This document shows, piece by piece, positions 6,830 through 31,965 of a stretch of 35,587 nt of DNA. The first letter of the stretch is position 1, and every line of letters begins with the position of its first letter. The notes under the pieces were generated by a model. That model saw only the letters and a list, made by a program, of their open reading frames with translations, made no database searches and was not told the DNA's origin. Source of the stretch: Trypethelium eluteriae (Eukaryota); NCBI GenBank assembly GCA_051942245.1, contig JAVECL010000022.1, forward strand, positions 62,001 to 97,587, written 5' to 3'. Both the position numbers and the translations under genes were made by a program.

Positions 6830-7255
6830 TTAAGCCGAATCTCGCTTGCCCTCTTTCACCTCTTTCTGGAAAGATATCAATGTCAGCTATTGCCATCTTC
6901 AAAAGTAGCTTCCGTCTTCGAGATTACTGCCGTGGGAAAAAAACGTACTAGCGCCCTCATCGTGCCATGCAATGCATGCCTGTGATTCCGTCGAAACTTG
7001 GGATCCGTGCCTTTGAGAGATGGATATCGATGTGTCTTAGGTTTCTTGATACTGTGTGGACGATACAAGATCAGAAACAAACGCTATGCACGAATCGGGC
7101 TGAAGTCGAAGTGGTAAATTGGGGAGGAGCGTGCTCACCCATTCTTGTGGTTCTTCTTGGCTTGATTATGCTGAGACGAGTTCTTGGATTCTGAAGTCAA
7201 AGTCAGAAATTAGAGGCGACCTCCAGTTTCCAATGCCGAGTAGCTCACTAGCCAT
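6830..7255 (-). CDS. RPL29: 60S ribosomal protein L29 (eL29), 65 aa. Exons 7255-7249, 7190-7139, 7051-6949, 6865-6830
   Basis: Spliced translation [65 protein letters not shown]. Three GT-AG introns are in phase; the total is 198 nt. Confidence 0.96.
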
Positions 7256-7639: not shown

Positions 7640-9223
7640 CTATTGATGCCCATGCTTCCCATAGCCAGCATCCAGAAGCTGTTGTTGGATTCTCGCATCT
7701 GCGGATAATGGATGGTGAGATGTGCTGCTGGAACCCTCATCGGGTGCGTGATGCTCAAGATTTGAAGCATAGAGTAGGTCCGGCCTTGAACTTGCTCCGT
7801 TATCGAAGGATAAGCTATGTGAAGCCTGCTGTTCCTTTTCCTGCGGTTGATATTGCGTGGTAGACGGAGAAGACTGATGATAGTCGTAGTGCTCAATCCC
7901 TTCCATAATTCGGGGATCGACAGGCATCTCATAATTCTGAGCACGAGACATATTCGCCATTGGCGCTCGATATTGCTGATTTTCGTTTGCCTGGATAATA
8001 GGTGATAACTGGTCGGCATGATCTTGGAGGACGGTAGTGTCGTCTGCTCCTTGCTTGGGTCCCAAGGTATTTGGCGTTTCGAGTTGTGTTTCACCACGCA
8101 TTGCAGCTGCTCGAGCAACCTGAGTTTTACAATCGTGACAATTTCGAATGACTTGATTGGCAGTCTCCTTGATTCGAACCCAATGATATTTCTCGGCGAT
8201 GACAGCAGTAGTCTTATTGATACCGGCATGGTGTTCGCAATGGATCTTGCGAGCAATTTCATACTGCTTTTGAGGTTCTGAGATGACCTCCTTTCCCTTA
8301 AGCATTAGTCGCTCTGGCTCTTCGTTTGTCTCTGGTATGAGCTTGTAATGTGTAGCAGCGCTCCGAAGCCGACTTTTCTCTGCGCGATCTGCTCCGTCCG
8401 GGTATTTGCCATGTTTTAGATAATACCGAATTTTATCGAATCGCTCCTCAGACACGTATTCTTCACTGTCGGGACCAAGATCACGACCGTAGACTATCGC
8501 GTCGACGAGTTCGTCTGGGTACGACCGGAGGGCACCGGCGCCTTTGACCCGGCCAATGCGTTTGAATCCCAGCGCATCCCATATTCGGAGCGAGGCGACA
8601 TTTGTCTCATAGACAAGATTGAAGACAGAATATGCATACCCCTAGGAAGTTAGTACAAAGCAGAGTGTATTTCCAAGGCAACGTTTGGGCCATACCAGCC
8701 TGGGAGCCCAATCCAGATAAATCTCCCCCATCAATCTACCAACACCTCGATTTCGGGCTGCATCTGTGACCAAGAACCCACCATTGCAGACATGACTTGA
8801 CCTCCCAGGATAGTTGGGTTTGATGTAGAAGCTACCTAGACATTGCTTTTCCCAATCAGAGCCATTCAACTCCATCTGTCGAACTTCTTCCCTATCTTTG
8901 ATCTCGCCTAACAGCATCACGGCACCAAAATTGGCGAACCAATAAGGACCGAAGGTTTCCAACGGCAATGGATCCAGCATTGGGTAGGTATCTCCCTTTT
9001 CGATTTCACGATTCAATAGGGCGCCAAGATAGGACAGAAGTGCAGGAGGCACCTGATCGGGAGAGGAGAAGGGCATCAGGGTAGCAGCTGTGACACGGTC
9101 TCTTAATGTGACCTGACGAGGCGTAATTTCTGGAGGCAGCTCCCCGTACAGCGCTGGGAACGGCGGAACTCCAGAGCGGCGAGAAACCAGCCTCGCAGTC
9201 GGATCATCTAGCATTGCAGGCAT
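7640..9223 (-). CDS. SPT10: Spt10-like GNAT histone acetyltransferase with C-terminal H2C2 zinc-binding domain (~509 aa). Exons 9223-8696, 8641-7640
   Basis: GNAT motif CLGSFYIKPNYPGRSSHVCNGGFLV...RNRGVGRLMG...APRL|GYAYSVFNLVYETN joined across a GTATGG..CCTAG intron. C-terminal IHCEHHAGINKTTAVIAEKYHWVRIKETANQVIRNCHDCK. Confidence 0.9.
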
Positions 9224-14363: not shown

Positions 14364-16851
14364 CTAGCGTGTAATGATCATTCCGAATCCATCGACCCAT
14401 TGGCCACAGGTGCCGTAGACCCCGGCAATACTATAGCCTCGTGGTGGTATCAGAGTATGGCTAGGACAAATTCAGTCAGCATTAAGGTCTTACGAGGGGT
14501 TGAGGAAACGGTTTGGAGGACGTACCCAGATCCACCAGTAGCATTTCCATAGATTTCGCTCTTCCTTCCCAGGCTTGTCAGAATTTGTAGACCATCAATC
14601 CATACGCCAGCCCTTAGGTAGAACCCCATTAGAATTTCGCCTCTCCGTGTATCTAAGGCGAATTCACTTCCACCAGGTTTGCCGCCGCGCTTCCCAAATA
14701 GTTGCGTAGTAGAGTCCTCATAGATGAACTCGACTCCATCAAGACAAAAGCCACTATAGACTCGGACTGCTCTGAGAAGTTTCGTTTGCTGAAAGGCAGA
14801 TTGAAGAAGGATCTCTTGCGCTTGTGTGCCGTCCTGCTGGGAGAAGCCGAGCTTGCCACCTCGGAATCCTGCTCGGCCGTCAGGAAGCTTGACACGAGAA
14901 GCCTTTGAGGCGAGTTGATTGAAGTCTTCTACGGTGTGTTTGCCTCCGCCGGCAGAAAAGATGTCAATCTTCAATTTCTTATTCCGGCTCTTTTCAGGGA
15001 GTCGTGAACGGAGTTCGCCTTCAATAAGACTGACTTGGCGGGGAGGTCCATTCGACGAGCCGGGCTCCATGTACTCGATCCACGCATGACAGACATCGTC
15101 CCCTTCAGCGAATAGCTCAATGAAGGGAATGCCACTCGAAGCAGTCGCAAGCACATTTCCGACATCCACCGTCCAGACTTGAACACTTCCATCTTGGTTT
15201 GGAGATGGATCGGTCGGTAATCGGAAACATGGGTGAAAACGGAAGCGGAGAGTATCGAGTCTGTGCCAGGTACATTCATCTTTCGGTAGGCACAAACGCT
15301 GGCCAGGGGATTTGGTGCGAGTGGCAAACGCTTCCCTCGCTACAAATGTTCGGTTAAGTTTTATATAATCTCGGAGCATGACTCCAGACTCTTGATGAGG
15401 ACAACCGAGAAGATGGCCAGTTTCATGTAAGTGTGCTCCGATACCGATATTGGCGGCTTCCCAATTACTTCCCGACTCATTCAGGTCATTGGCAACGAAG
15501 TTCGTATCAGTTCGCGTACAATCCATGAAGGCCGGCACCACTTCTTCAATACTAGCTGGATAGCTTTGGAGGGCATGGGATCCGAAGACTGCAAGCTGCA
15601 GATCATCGCTTCCACCACCCAGCGCAGCGTGCCCGCGCACAGTCTTGTACTGTGAATCCCAATGAGTATCGAGATACATGCACGAAACGTACTGTTTTTG
15701 ACCCGGCCTTGGCGCAAAGTAAGCCCGAACAGCGTCCATTGCCCAGCTGTAGAGATCACCTTTTCTCTTCGCCGGCTCGTACTGTTGTGCCACCTCCAAG
15801 TCACGAATTTCTTGCAGGGTCTTTTCCATCCTAATGATGTGAATCTTAGCCTCGTTGCGCATTTGGTTGGTTTCCGTATCGCGGTAAGTAAGTGTGCCTT
15901 GTTGCCATTCCTCTTCGAACCGGAAGCAACGCCTCCCAAAGTTATTGCGATTCATTTGCTCGCCAGTGAAAGCCTGCCAGAGGTAGGCAGACATACGATA
16001 CTTGCGGATTGCAGTCGCCAGCCCGTTCCCTTCCCGCTGTACCCTCTCTGGGACTGCATCGTAGGTTTCTGGTGAATTTCTTGCAAGAAGAATGACAAGG
16101 TGGAGCGGTGGGGAGGCATTGAGAGGAAGGTAATTGATGTTGATCCATGACGAGTGTGCGGGCGAGGAGGTAGGCGGTGCTGCTTTGGCAGGAAGGAAGT
16201 CGAGTCGTAATCGATTGGGTCCCGGCTGTAGATGAACGAGTGTTTTGAAGTGGGAATCGAACACCGGCCAACTGGTCTGCGGGAAACTATCCTGGTGGTG
16301 GCAGACAATTACGTGACCGTCCTGCGGCTGCGTAACGTCGCCAATTTGACCATAGATCAGGAATACTTTTTGATGCACCTATGACACATCAATGCAAATA
16401 TCAAGCTATACAGATTCAAGCCACGTACCCAGGAATTGTCTGAAATGGAAACCACGCGAGGGGCCAATGGAGATGTAGCTGCCATGTTTCGTGGCTGACC
16501 GTTGGACACAGGAGATCCCTGGAGAGCAGATTAACCAAGTGCTATTATGTCCTCGTCATGATCTGGACTCACTACGATCGAGTAGCGATTGCTCTTGGAA
16601 CTGACGACGGAAGGTCTTGTTGGGACAGGCGGTGGAGAACCGTTGGTAGCGACTAGATTTGTGGCAGACTTTGAACGCTCGGAGAGGAGGGTGCTGGGCG
16701 GGGTAGAGGAGCCAAGGAAAGAGTTCAGGGTGGAGGAGGATTTATTGGTGCCATTGGAAGATGTGTTTGAAGCGGACCACTTCTCACTGTCGGCTGAAGG
16801 TGGCTTGCGCGTGATAGATTTGCGGCGCAGGTCTTTGAGAAACGAGGGCAT
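14364..16851 (-). CDS. Putative zinc metallopeptidase (YIL108W-like) with C-terminal jacalin-like lectin domain. Exons 16851-16573, 16518-16429, 16378-14526, 14460-14364
   Basis: HExxH zinc motif GAHLHETGHLLGCPH. C-terminal beta-prism-like repeats (RVYSGFCLDGVEF, GFYLRAGVWIDGLQI, AGVYGTCGQWVDGFGMI). Three in-phase introns; Ser-rich N-terminus. Confidence 0.88.
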
Positions 16852-25455: not shown

Positions 25456-28400
25456 CTAGTCTTTTATGGAAGGCTCGAAACAATTCCATGCGTGATTGTT
25501 CTGTAGGTGACTGAAGAAAGGCCTACACATAAAACAATAATCAAAGTCTGAACACGTGCGACAGTGGAAACGCGGTCCGCAGATATCCTACGTAATATGA
25601 GTTGCGTTCAGGTTTTGCCAAGCTATGCACTCACATGAAAGCAGCAATTGCACCAATAACCTTCGTGGCGTTTACCATGGACTCGCATAGTATCTTCGCC
25701 AGTGTCTAGTAGAGACATAGAATGTTCGAAAAGCTCTTTGAGCATCTCCCCCTTTCCATGGAAGATAGCGACAGAAATAGAGCTCCAGTGGCCTGCTGGC
25801 CTGGAAACGGCAACATTGGTACTGTGGACGCCTTTCTCAATCAGTTTCTCTACGAGATGGGGATTTCCCTTTCTACAGGCCCAGTGAATAGGGGTCCAAT
25901 ATTCGCTCTGCGTGCGGGAGACACGATCCATATCTAGTACCGCGTTGAGAATCTCCAATGAACCTCCAGACGAAGCATAATGTAAAAGGTTTTCTCCCTT
26001 TAAGTCGGTCATTGCAGGATCAATGCCTAGACGGAGGAGATACTGGAAGGCGTTGAAATGCCCGCCTCTGGCGGCAAGATGAAGAGGCGTTCGACCGTGC
26101 CGTTCAATTAGAAGTGGGGCTTCATAGTTATGATCGTAGATTAAGCGCAATAGATCCGTATGACCCTTGAAGGCAATGAGGTGCAGGGAGGAACCATAGC
26201 GACAGTCAAGAGATCTTAGATGAGAACCAGCGTCCAGAAGGAGCTTCACGACTCCGATAGAGCCGCTGGCACAGGCCGCCCCAAGTGCGTTCGTAAAGGG
26301 TCCGCCCTGCGCATCTATGTTGATGCCCTTGTCAAGCAGCAGCCTCACAATTGGCTCGTAGCCTTTCTCGGAAGCTGCTATCAGCGCATTATCAGAGAAT
26401 TCATCCCGTGCATTAACGTCAGCGCCCTTATCAAGCAGCAACCTTACAATCTGCCCATGGCCTTTCAAGGAAGCTGCTATAAGCGCATTACCAGAGAATT
26501 TATCCTGTGCATTAACATCGGCGCCCTTGTCAAGCAGCAACCTCACAATCTGCTCGTGTCCCTCTAATGCAGCTTCCTCAAGGGCGTTACCATAGTCCCC
26601 ACCCTGTGAATTAACGTCGGCGCCCTTATTGAGTAGTAGCTTCACCATCTCGTAATACCCATGCTTTGCCGCAAGGTATAGTGGAGTCTGACCGTGGCTA
26701 TCCTTACTGGCAAGTGCGGTCGCTCCCTCGTGAATTTGTCGTGCCAGTATCTTCTCTGATGTGAGACATAACCCAAATCTGGCAATTAGATGCAGACCTG
26801 TCGTGTTCTTGGCATAATCCTGGCTGTAGCCCTTGTATTTGTAAGCTGAAGGCCGCAATGCCTGTGTAGCACATGAAACTAATCCTTCATGGAGGAGAAA
26901 TGAACAAATCTGCTCACACACCCCATCTTCAACTGTTATTGCATGCTCTCCCCAGTGCTTGGCAGCATAGTCTAGGAATTGGTTTTGCCGAAGCCTTTCT
27001 TCAAACTCTTCGTCAGTGGCACTACTACCAGATTTGAAAGCATCAAAGCATAGGTAGGTAAGCCACGTTGACGTGATTTCAAGCAGAGCACTAGGGTTCC
27101 ATTGTTCCATAATGCGTTCAAAGTATTCCTGTGTCGTGCAGTGCACAAGACGGACTATAGCACTCTCCGGGTCGATCACAACAAGGCCGGCGCATACTGA
27201 TACCAAGTCTTCAATGTCAGGTACATTGTCTGGGTCAAGTTCCACATCTTCTGGCTCTACTGCTAAAGCACAGCATAGCTCAGCCGTAGTTGGGGGCCTC
27301 TTCGCGTAAGTAATCCAAGAGAGGACCTTCTTTGCTTGTTCCAGGTCGCCACTCAGCTGACCTTCTATCCTTTGAATAGCCTCTCTATATGCATCATCGA
27401 GTGTGACCGAGCCTTTGGAGAGCCTTGTTACAGTTGACTTCACATCTTTTGGTGTTCTCTTATCCAGGAGCGAGTCTGTATATAGGCGGGCGAGAAGGAA
27501 CCTAAGAACCAGTAAGCCTATTCCAACTTCCAGCAAGCAGAGATCAAAGCTTACATGCCGTTTACTGCCTCTGTTATCTCTTCTTGCACCATCTTTTGTA
27601 AAGCAGCGTCACGCCGAATGCATCTTGGCAGCCTGTAAACCTGACCAGCTATAAACCTCTTCACGTCCTCGTCCCTTGCCCGTATCTCTAGGGTTAGCAC
27701 TAATTCAAAGTCATTGCTAATGTCCGGAATGATACGCGAGGTGATCATTAGGCGTAAATCTGTCTCAGCTTGCAGGTCCATAACTTTGGCTAGAAAGAAG
27801 CGACGAGTGCCATCATTGTCGCGACACTCATCTACAGCATCGATTACGACGTACACAGAACAGAACGTTGCAAGTACGTATCTTAGAGCCGCAAAGATCT
27901 CGTCAAATGATGGCCTCGTCCCCCGATGGGCATGCTGCACGTACAACCGTTCCACAGGCTCCTTAAGCGAAGACCGGCTCTGTATCAGCTGCTTGGGAAT
28001 AGCCGCAAGCAGATCAATAGCACTGTGCTCTTCCTGAGTCTTGTAGTTGCAGTATATATAAGCGATTCCGACGGAGTTGCTTTGTACTGTCTTCAATAAG
28101 TGCTCGATTGCGGTGGCTGCTATTATAGTCTTGCCGGCCCCAGGAATACCCGGGCAGAAAAGCGTTCCTTTCGGCTGTCTAAGCCACTGTGCTACCTTGG
28201 AAGTGCTAAGAAACCACTCGCCAGTCCCTTGCTGCCTACGGCTAATGACATCGGATTGTTGCGCGGGATAGTCCGTCGGTCAGATCCATGCCATGAGCTT
28301 GTTATGTTGTGCAAGGTCGGCTTCACGCCGTGTATAGCTAGTGACGTCCTTTATAGCTTCCGTATTACTGCGGGTTACATCTCCGCTCTCTTTTATGGCT

Positions 28401-28878: not shown

Positions 28879-29431
28879 ATGGAAGGTGGGCGAAGTTTGT
28901 AAAGATGCAAGAGAACATGTCAGAGGAGCTCAACACACAACGAAACATAGGATACGAAAGGCCAATGGGCTGCAAAGAACGGATTGGGGTAACTGCAGCA
29001 GGGCTGAAGAGTTTTGTACACGCGGTTTACTCCGTGCTGTGCCGTGCACCATAGCTATATCAACGACACAGTCGACAGAAGTAGAAGAAACTGAATACGC
29101 AATGATAAAAGCTCGGAGATATTTTAGCCATTAGAGTAAGTTGTAAATACATTGTAAATTGCTCAAAGCACTTCTCCCACAAATTTCAAGGTCTTCTGGC
29201 GAACGTCTCAGGATGTGAAAATTGGAACAGATGCAGAAAAATACAAGCAATGGCACTGGGTCGAAAGAAAATTAAAGAAAAACGGGAGAGCTGACAATTT
29301 ATTACTGGGTGACAGTTTCACTCCGCACAAGCTAAGGAGCGACCAGTGAAAGTCCTTCACGTCTTCAATCCCACTAATATAGGTGGGGATACGTCGCTCG
29401 ATAGTTCCTTCCATATAATTGGTCTGAAAGT

Positions 29432-29449
29432 AAAAAAGAAAACAAAAAA
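29432..29449 (-). terminator. RNA polymerase III oligo-T terminator downstream of tRNA-Met
   Basis: The minus strand reads ATAATTTTTTGTTTTCTTTTTT immediately after the discriminator base. Confidence 0.8.
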
Positions 29450-29489
29450 TTATTGCCCCGTGCAAGGATCGAACTTGCGACCTTCAGAT

Positions 29490-29523
29490 AACTTGAACTC
29501 TTCGAGTCCATCATATGTTCAAA
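29490..29523 (-). other. Canonical 34-nt tRNA intron at position 37/38
   Basis: TTTGAACATATGATGGACTCGAAGAGTTCAAGTT lies one base 3' of the anticodon, contains TATGA complementary to TCATA, and lacks GT-AG ends. Confidence 0.85.
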
Positions 29524-29530
29524 TATGAGA

Positions 29531-29582
29531 CTAAACGATAGAAAGTCAGCGGCTGATTGCATGCAGATGCAACGATGCGTAC
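29531..29582 (-). other. 52-nt spliceosomal-type intron inside the tRNA-Met anticodon stem (between positions 30 and 31)
   Basis: CAG|GTACGCATCG...CCGCTGACTTTCTATCGTTTAG|T: GTRNGY donor, GCTGAC branch site 14 nt before the end, pyrimidine-rich stretch and TAG acceptor. Size matches the mRNA introns in this window. Confidence 0.8.
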
Positions 29583-29640
29583 CTGACGTGATAGCCAACT
29601 ACACCAACGAGGCGATGCAATGATTTAAGATTTTGGTACA

Positions 29641-29650
29641 TAATTATATA
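29641..29650 (-). promoter_or_regulatory. TATA-like element ~30 nt upstream of the tRNA-Met 5' end
   Basis: Minus strand TATATAATTA at about -28 to -37 from 29613. Confidence 0.45.
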
Positions 29651-30534
29651 TTGGTCAATTTAAATAACACCAACATAAGCCTGTTCTCCCTTTAGGTAAT
29701 TAGATTACCTATTACCTACCTTGGTAGGTAGGTGAGTACTAAACTAGGACCGAGCAGGAATAACCCCTTTTCTTAGTACTTCAAGGTTCTTATTAAGGTG
29801 AAGTAGGTCTTGGGGCGAACTGGAACTCTTCTTCGGACTTCCCATGAATTTAGTATGGTCGTGGAAACGCCCATCGCACAAGTTACGCCCGCCTAAGTTA
29901 CTTCGCCCCAATTCTTCCAAGGGTTTCTGGATGAAGGAGGGTGGAGAGGTGGCGGCGGTACGATATGAGGTCTCCGATAAGTGACCAGGTTAACGATAAG
30001 CGAATATGGCTTTCAAAGACAGATCAGTCTGAGCTAACTACTCTACTTGGATAGCAGACTTGCGGATCGAGAGCCGGAGCATGGAAAAACTTCTTGGCGT
30101 TTTCGGAAAGGTGTATATTCAAAACTATAAAAGTAAAGACTGTCATTCACGGCGGATCCAAGAAGCCCCCAACGTCGCTCGTTGCCACTTCGTAACGTCT
30201 TATTGTCCGGAGACTCCAAAGTGAAGATGCTCTCACGTTAGATCAGCTCTGGGAACCAGCTCATGGTGCAATATTATGATTGAAATGGGTAACTGAGTTC
30301 GGAATAATCGCCTCCAGCCATTCTACTTTCCAGCAATGGGACTTACCTTTCCTGATCATCGATCGCTTCCAATCCTGACGTCGTAGTTAATTGAAGTAAT
30401 GTCACTCATGGATTTTTGGCACCACCTGCTCGGATTGTATTCACTAGTGCGCCCCCGAGGCCCTGTTGGGTTCTTCCTGAGCGCTGTAAGAGGAGGTTCG
30501 AGGGAGAAGATGCATTAGCACTCTCAAGCACTAT

Positions 30535-31965
30535 TCAAAGCCCACTCAACTTGATACGGTCCGCGCTCTCACATTGAAGAAAACCATCTCTATCGCATTC
30601 CGGAGGCCACTTCTCCTTAGTAACCCCGTAACTCCCATTCTTCGATTTACCAAAGTAGAAGCGAGCCACATCACTTGTTGCCACCTTCGTCGCACTAGCG
30701 ACATTACTTTCTCGAACCGCTTGGGCCATCCACTCAAAGGTCTCACCAGGAGTGAAGCGCATGATCCATTCGACATCGTTCTGATCCACATCCTTACTCA
30801 AAATCCTGAGTCTGATCGTCATACCCACCCAGTATAAGAACAAAGACTTCACAAGCAGTACCACAATTCCGGCGAGCAACAGGAGCTCCCAAAGGATCCA
30901 CGTTCGTGTCGTGATACAGCCCTGTGACTGCGTTGACATGCTGGAGTTCAACAAATAGTTGTTTCCGCTTGCCACCATGATCATGGAATTTAATATTTGC
31001 TCTAGCACACTTCCGGCGTCTGGAGAAGCGGGCGAGCCCGTTCCGCTGTAGAGTGAGCCTTGGAATGTCTGCTTCCAATCTTGAAGGGTCGCGAAGGAGT
31101 CGATCCCCTTTTGAATGTCCGTGAGCATATCGTAGGTGTCATGTAGAGCGCACTCATAGCTCTGCATTCGTTTCGTGTCATTGCCTTGGGCGGATAAATC
31201 CACAGAAGCTCGAACATTAAACGTTGTGTCGATAGTCTGACCAGCCGAAGTCTCCAGAATAACAAGGTGGCTAAATGTACCGTCTTGGTTCGCATTGGCA
31301 ACAGAGACAGGAGTACTATAAAGCATATTGTGTTGCACAGTGTCGGAGACAACATCATCCGAAGATGTAGAGAATGGATACTCCAGTACCTGCGGCTTTG
31401 CTGTACAAGTCCACTCCCCGAGAACACCAGCTACATCTGCACTGAATCTTGGATCCCTGTTTACTTTAGCATAGATACCTTGCTTTCCACCATTTTGTAT
31501 GCTCTTGAGCTGTGCTTGTGTCACGACCATGTATGGTGCGCCGTTGGATGTTGGGAGCCCCATGCGATAATCTGAGACGACAAGACCGACTCCAAATGGG
31601 CATCGATCGCGAACGGGAACTGATTGGATAAGGGTAGACACAAAGTCTGCCCCCACACTCAATGCGTAAGTTAGGATCATAATAAGGCCTAACCATCCCC
31701 CGGGAAGGACCTTGAGCGTCTTTAGTGCAATGACTGAATCAAGTCCGGATAACCAGTTCGACATTAGGGGCAATGGGGCATGTTGCCTTCGCATGAGCTT
31801 CAGCTTAGCTTGTGTAGCCAACCACTTTCTGCCAAGAAAGCTAATAGCGATGAACAGGACGACAAAGAGAATACGGAACAATAGTCGGACATGAGTACTG
31901 GGGTAATTAACAAGGAGCTTGGCCGTTGTGATTTCAGTAAGCTGTGAGTACTACCGAGGAAGCAT
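30535..31965 (-). CDS. Hypothetical fungal membrane protein (N-terminal TM helices, Cys-containing lumenal domain, C-terminal TM); 5' end unresolved
   Basis: 448-codon ORF 30535..31881 begins at TTG, with hydrophobic segments LFVVLFIAISFLG, WLGLIMILTYALSVGA and WILWELLLLAGIVVLLV. The nearest upstream in-frame ATG (31965) is followed by TAG at 31953-31951. Confidence 0.65.

Follow-up and report, generated by a model that had tools for sequence, protein, structure and literature searches.

Can a tRNA gene carry an intron of the kind that the spliceosome removes from mRNAs, and would the product of such a gene then depend upon two splicing systems? The textbook division of labor reserves the spliceosome for transcripts of RNA polymerase II, together with a few snRNAs and rRNAs, and leaves the tRNAs to a protein endonuclease and a ligase. 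The question is raised by a gene for elongator tRNA-Met(CAT) on the minus strand of the Trypethelium eluteriae DNA analysed here (the whole stretch of 35,587 nucleotides, hereafter the window), which occupies 160 nt (29613-29454) and is divided by two introns into exons of 31, 7 and 36 nt. Its sequence suggests that the interrupted tRNA-Met may need the mRNA splicing machinery in order to mature. Three things are new at this locus: a 7-nt anticodon micro-exon stands between introns of two different kinds, one of these introns has a twin at another place in the genome, and the tRNA gene itself apparently has none. The features of the gene are as follows.

29454..29613, minus strand: complete gene for elongator tRNA-Met(CAT), with three exons separated by two introns, from the letters and ARAGORN; mature form 74 nt
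29583..29613, minus strand: 5' exon, 31 nt, holding the acceptor 5' strand, the D arm with the A box, and anticodon stem bases 1-4
29531..29582, minus strand: spliceosomal-type insert, 52 nt, between tRNA positions 30 and 31
29577..29582, minus strand: putative donor GTACGC with exon CAG just upstream, from the sequence and the local mRNA introns
29557..29572, minus strand: small predicted hairpin within the insert, TTGCAT / CTGC / ATGCAA; the insert alone folds at -6.7 kcal/mol
29540..29576, minus strand: 37-nt core exactly common to a second locus of the same genome, at a contig depth of 986 against about 435 in the flanks
29545..29550, minus strand: branch-point motif GCTGAC with its candidate branch A at 29546, followed after 11 nt by TAG; an intron of the jacalin gene has this motif at an equal distance
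29531..29533, minus strand: putative acceptor TAG with a pyrimidine-rich stretch upstream, from the sequence
29524..29530, minus strand: micro-exon TCTCATA, 7 nt, positions 31-37 with the anticodon CAT, from the sequence and ARAGORN
29490..29523, minus strand: canonical tRNA intron, 34 nt, at 37/38, from ARAGORN
29454..29489, minus strand: 3' exon, 36 nt, holding the anticodon stem 3' strand, the variable loop, the T arm with the B box, and the acceptor 3' strand; exact match in the metagenome locus L001
29432..29449, minus strand: Pol III terminator-like T runs (T6, T4, T6), read from the sequence, the first T6 at 29449-29444, 4 nt past the gene
29643..29650, minus strand: TATATAAT at -37 to -30, a possible TATA-like upstream element, its role suggested by sequence

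The coordinates and letters that a first-pass annotation of this DNA had given for the gene, the insert and the introns all proved exact on re-reading. The 5' exon (29613-29583) ends in CACGTCAG, the insert that follows it reads GTACGC...GCTGAC-N11-TAG (GCTGAC at 29550-29545), and beyond the anticodon exon lies the second, normal intron of the earlier description, which ARAGORN recognizes at 34 nt. The latter obeys the 37/38 rule, base 32 being able to pair with the intron base that lies 3 nt before the 3' cut. The gene shows none of the marks of a pseudogene, such as damage at conserved positions or the loss of promoter boxes or of the terminator; the A box, the B box, the stems and the T-run terminator are intact in the sequence and in the ARAGORN cloverleaf, as had been claimed. 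The longest T run within the gene is T3, and T4 is absent from both introns. On the basis of G1-C72 and the T loop, we take the gene to specify the elongator rather than the initiator tRNA-Met. An undamaged tRNA sequence of this sort would be compatible with activity of the gene and is no proof of it.

Removal of GT..AG had been said to restore a mature tRNA, and two observations bear this out. Deletion of 29531-29582 in silico, a check proposed by the first-pass annotation, leads ARAGORN to report a tRNA-Met(cat) of 74 nt that folds into a full cloverleaf and has an intron of 34 nt at the canonical position. Furthermore, the exact 36-nt 3' exon occurs at one locus of a metagenome collection (L001), in which the 5' exon and the micro-exon are contiguous and the sole intron, of 30 nt, stands at 37/38; the mature tRNA is identical to that of L001 at 73 of 74 nt, with the single difference in the D loop. 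As L001 is uninterrupted across G30|U31, the junction proposed here matches that of an uninterrupted gene. The insert is accordingly present in 0 of 1 relatives, and L001 and the window share no flanks and nothing beyond the tRNA itself, such that L001 is to be regarded as a relative's tRNA-Met gene and not as a demonstrably orthologous locus. A degenerate tRNA-Met pattern recovered one locus (L002) from a genome contig collection, with an extra insert in 0 of 1, and 0 loci from a viral contig collection. L002 (FXLX01000321.1, 1,007 nt) is a eukaryote-type elongator tRNA-Met with a 17-nt intron on a short contig of low coverage; it is filed under the assembly of an uncultured SUP05 bacterium, where it probably represents host or eukaryote contamination.

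The undeleted locus defeats the tRNA-gene finders, as had been predicted. With default settings ARAGORN reports 0 genes, and with introns allowed it returns a tRNA-Leu(caa) with an 82-nt intron; Rfam yields no match on the same locus, either at the gathering score or at E values up to 10. We have rejected the tRNA-Leu(caa) call, which places its intron at a non-canonical site, depends on wobble pairing in the D stem and is without the long variable arm that is the hallmark of tRNA-Leu; the Met reading agrees with L001. L001 is itself prone to misreading: at its positions 500-605, a plain tRNA-Met(CAT), ARAGORN with introns allowed parses a tRNA-Ala(tgc), which was likewise rejected, since the intron would fall at 33/34 and the G3:U70 pair expected of tRNA-Ala is absent. 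The 3' end of the L001 intron mimics an anticodon loop, and the same weakness of ARAGORN yields the false tRNA-Leu in the window.

To what extent, then, does the insert resemble the introns of mRNAs from the same neighborhood? A scan of ORF junctions in the window gave 15 candidate introns, from which ambiguous, doubtful or alternative ones were dropped and nine were kept as a reference set; these nine predicted introns make protein sense and are supported by ORFs or by homology, and they belong to RPL29 (three), GGA (two), a metallopeptidase/jacalin gene, CP2, an FMO-like gene and Tsr3 (one each). Splicing of the three RPL29 introns gives a complete protein of 65 residues, which we take to be eL29. 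Measured against this set, the insert falls within the local range both in length (52 nt against 47-92 nt) and in GC content (0.48 against 0.42-0.51). Its donor is GTACGC, and the nine local introns have GTACGT in three cases and C at +6 in two; the GTACGT donors that had been attributed to RPL29 and GGA are indeed found, at 6948 (minus) and 13422 (plus), respectively. Its branch motif is GCTGAC, and CTGAC occurs in four of the nine. The exon ends in CAG before the donor of the insert, a position at which the local introns are variable. One intron of the set, at 14461-14525 in the jacalin gene, has the very layout of the insert, GTACGT...GCTGAC-N11-TAG. The insert therefore has the properties of a U2-type GT-AG intron in its ends, in the exact restoration of its host, in its extended donor, and in its branch, length and composition. 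Each sequence feature tested supports the reading originally put forward, that of an mRNA-type GT-AG intron in an otherwise intact gene, and we consider it very probable, as far as sequence can tell, that the insert is an intron of the mRNA type.

Some of the neighboring genes have features of their own. The RPL29 (eL29) gene (6866-7255, minus) is compact, with introns of 58, 87 and 83 nt, a first exon that is just ATGGCTA, and a T7 run within the third intron. It is adjoined by an ORF (7643-8641, minus) with a match to the H2C2 integrase zinc finger (PF09337, PF17921), apparently the remnant of a retrotransposon integrase. The last intron of the jacalin gene (14461-14525, minus) is read through by a plain ORF finder, and its splicing changes the C-terminus of the jacalin domain to a more plausible one. 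At 25626-28279 (minus) there is an NLR-like gene in which an NPHP3_N/NACHT-type N-terminal part is followed by many ankyrin repeats, an architecture typical of filamentous fungi. The DNA as a whole is that of a fungus, in all probability an ascomycete.

The frequency with which such a layout might be expected by chance was estimated with an anchored grammar, in which both ends are fixed on a 52-mer that begins with GTRNGY and carries CTRAY 4-22 nt before a terminal YAG. On the two strands of the window, 249 of 71,070 52-mers have the form GT..AG, and exactly one, the insert itself, fits the anchored grammar. Because the 5' exon and the insert both end in AG, three cut registers restore the identical mature tRNA, and these equivalent registers inflate the chance threefold at most. 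Given that the tRNA fixes the ends of the insert independently, and allowing for the three registers, such a fit would arise by chance roughly once in 20,000. The unanchored motif GTRNGY...CTRAY...YAG shows no enrichment (20 matches were counted in the window, and 100 shuffles gave 25.5 +/- 5.8), which renders bare motif counts worthless there; the signal is the coincidence of the motif with boundaries that the tRNA defines, and not the motif alone.

The genes of other structural RNAs provide the closest known systems, and the primary papers on spliceosomal introns in such genes are reportedly those of Tani and Ohshima, Takahashi et al., Bhattacharya et al. and Canzler et al. In fission yeast, the U6 snRNA contains mRNA-type introns that are spliced from a Pol III transcript, and the hosts of spliceosomal introns listed in a review are the U6, U2, U5 and U1 snRNA genes and rRNA genes, with tRNA not among them; reverse splicing is the presumed origin of these introns in RNA genes, many of which are confined to single species (PMC5855946). 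The precedent invoked in the first-pass annotation, that of spliceosomal introns in fungal U6 snRNA and rRNA genes, agrees with PMC5855946. The annotation also knew of no described spliceosomal intron in a tRNA gene, and our search of the openly accessible full-text literature found no such description. The likeness to the U6 introns of Schizosaccharomyces pombe and other fungi lies in the fact that both are GT-AG introns with a branch site in the gene of a structural non-coding RNA, U6 being both made by Pol III and spliced. In contrast to U6, however, a tRNA is not part of the spliceosome, and as such the 'proximity to the active site' cannot explain the insertion; the tRNA precursor would additionally need the protein-only tRNA splicing pathway. 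As for the introns proper to tRNAs, the 34-nt intron of this gene and the 30-nt intron of L001 are canonical ones at 37/38, whereas the 52-nt insert lies at 30/31 in the anticodon stem, has no bulge-helix-bulge, and possesses a donor, a branch site and an acceptor by sequence. The tRNA genes of archaea and of the red alga Cyanidioschyzon are similar to the present one in that they can have more than one intron, at non-canonical positions, and are missed by standard tRNA finders, but it is a bulge-helix-bulge that directs the endonuclease to their introns, and the insert has spliceosomal signals instead.

The insert is not unique in its genome. Contigs (k=31) of a single DNA run, X1, which is probably the source of the window and not independent of it, were aligned to 29300-29800, with the following five records.

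Record 1: 4,405 nt, depth 441; covers 29300-29569 with 0 mismatches and ends within the insert
Record 2: 20,339 nt, depth 417; covers 29534-29569 (36 nt) with 1 mismatch, then unlike sequence
Record 3: 37 nt, depth 986; covers 29540-29576 with 0 mismatches and bridges records 1 and 4
Record 4: 6,052 nt, depth 435; covers 29547-29800 with 0 mismatches and starts within the insert
Record 5: 16,783 nt, depth 423; covers 29547-29591 (45 nt) with 3 mismatches, then unlike sequence

As the contig graph breaks in the insert, the depth of the core is doubled and the flanks are unlike, we conclude that the insert is a two-copy repeat with its second locus elsewhere in the genome; no second copy was found inside the window. 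The second copy is near-identical, with a length of 52-53 nt, and its flanks differ from those of the tRNA locus. On the 3' side it reads ...ATCGTT, then ATAG, and then runs into unrelated sequence, with a 1-nt indel, so that the likeness does not extend past the 3' splice site. On the 5' side the contig graph forks at donor position +6, at which the two copies differ. The alignment goes on past the donor for some 9 nt of the tRNA 5' exon (29577-29591; 3 mismatches in 45 nt, one of them forced at +6), perhaps because a stretch of exon traveled along with the intron, or because the intron favors a similar upstream context. The 30 nt of flank visible on each side of the second copy, read by eye, do not resemble a tRNA; the putative junction is crossed by two open frames, which is uninformative. 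Neither joints nor a form of the DNA without the insert were found among the X1 contigs, a result that is uninformative either way in a single source-like run.

In fungi, near-identical introns duplicated in low number among unrelated genes have been described along with high-copy introner-like elements (PMC3609843, PMC8469720), the latter comprising hundreds of near-identical copies that are longer than regular introns and have a stable predicted structure (PMC3609843). A tRNA gene goes unmentioned as an introner host in PMC4457414, in which 'tRNA' has 0 occurrences. With both classes the insert and its twin have in common the near-identical short copies at unrelated places, the likeness that ends at the 3' splice site and the internal hairpin; in contrast to the introner-like elements, we find two copies of 52-53 nt rather than hundreds of longer ones. 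With about two copies, a length of 52 nt and a fold of just -6.7 kcal/mol, the insert does not have the character of an introner-like element, and the pair fits low-copy duplicated introns better. The existence of two near-identical copies implies that the intron arose by, or gave rise to, a duplication or transposition event.

The tRNA exons were examined for a twin in the same run. Contigs 1 and 4 of X1 traverse the 3' and 5' exons, respectively, without a fork and at single-copy depth, and no twin of the exons was found among the X1 contigs listed at 80% likeness, though pieces of the insert as short as 36 and 45 nt were recovered. Since none of the other contigs listed lies on the exons, no twin tRNA with the same or closely similar exons is seen in X1. 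Were this the sole elongator tRNA-Met gene, removal of the insert would be needed for the fungus to live. We put forward only tentatively, as a possibility that we rather doubt, the fuller proposal that the interrupted gene is the sole elongator tRNA-Met, that every internal AUG codon of the cell is dependent upon the spliceosome cutting a Pol III precursor ahead of the endonuclease, and that the intron moved to or from another gene by reverse splicing or duplication.

The reading that we prefer is that the insert is spliced from the tRNA precursor and that the gene works, to which we assign a probability of about 0.55. According to this proposal, an ordinary U2-type (GT-AG) intron of the mRNA type would have been gained in the 5' strand of the anticodon stem, beside the inherited intron at 37/38. 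RNA polymerase III would transcribe the 160-nt gene, and the nuclear spliceosome would excise the 52 nt by way of CAG|GTACGC, the GCTGAC branch and TAG, thereby joining G30 to U31 and restoring the 5-bp anticodon stem. The 34-nt intron would be removed only afterwards, by the tRNA ligase together with the tRNA splicing endonuclease, which takes its measure from the body of the folded tRNA. As the endonuclease needs the correct stem length, the 52 nt would have to be removed first; the tRNA endonuclease of budding yeast works in the cytoplasm, which fits an order in which the spliceosome acts before it. We count against a working gene that the 5' exon is short (31 nt plus leader) and uncapped, that donors with C at +6 are the less common kind, and that the insert is not conserved across species, L001 (1 of 1) being without it.

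Among the rival explanations, one would leave the spliceosome out entirely: the insert would be a non-canonical intron of the tRNA type, cut at a bulge-helix-bulge, and its GT/AG ends and branch motif would have arisen by chance. Ectopic and multiple introns of the endonuclease type do exist in archaeal and some algal tRNA genes (PMC3978253). In the present gene, however, a bulge-helix-bulge motif is absent in all three equivalent registers, whether the precursor is complete or has already lost the 34-nt intron; at most 2 of 4 pairs of the central 4-bp helix can form in any register, and flanking helices are lacking. The eukaryotic tRNA splicing endonuclease measures from the tRNA body to 37/38, such that no cut is possible at 30/31. 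Furthermore, the anchored spliceosomal grammar singles out this one 52-mer in 71,070, and the twin of the insert has flanks that are not tRNA-like. Judged by its position at 30/31 and the lack of a bulge-helix-bulge, the insert is not an intron of the tRNA-endonuclease type, and we regard the contrary as very improbable. Scarcely credible is an assembly artefact, in which a false join would have been made through a repeat inside the insert. There is indeed a branching of the k=31 contig graph at the 37-nt core, but each half of the tRNA abuts insert sequence on a contig of its own (records 1 and 4), so that the tRNA gene is interrupted however the graph is threaded, and a complete tRNA results from the threading that the window has.

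Other rivals accept the intron and dispute the tRNA. The gene might be dead or dying, a copy of an mRNA-type intron or an intron-derived repeat having inactivated this tRNA-Met, with removal absent or rare and a divergent gene doing the work. The insert is after all a repeat with a second copy, perhaps simply copied into a harmful place; several tRNA-Met genes are usual in fungi, and the sole relative found, L001, does not have the insert. Against such a fate, the exons are all intact, with the 73 of 74 nt shared with L001 and the one D-loop difference, and the insert is placed behind CAG exactly where removal of GT..AG restores the tRNA. No X1 contig carries the same or similar exons at 80% likeness, and the two copies of the insert are set apart by a 1-nt indel and, to either side of the 37-nt core, by one substitution or more, a divergence which argues that the event is not brand new. 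On this evidence we judge inactivation of the gene unlikely, while giving it real weight. It is also conceivable that the insert is spliced only from long Pol II transcripts, read-through or antisense-independent, the product never becoming a tRNA and the Pol III precursor being unspliceable. This we hold to be improbable, since nothing in the window points to a minus-strand gene across the locus (of the neighboring ORFs on that strand, one ends at 30535 and the next starts at 28929) and the intact tRNA exons would be left unexplained.

Should the insert indeed be spliced from a working tRNA precursor, a tRNA that needs both splicing systems in a fixed order would break the textbook division between them. 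The spliceosome would then be able to act upon short, uncapped and highly structured Pol III precursors, and the translation capacity of the cell would be tied to its splicing capacity. Genes of this design would also explain the under-counting of tRNAs by gene finders in some fungi, ARAGORN and Rfam both failing at the present locus. With its twin present in the same genome, the intron makes a directly testable case of the entry of a new intron into a gene, and, if the transfer reading is true, the transposition of an intron between an RNA gene and another locus would have been caught nearly in the act.
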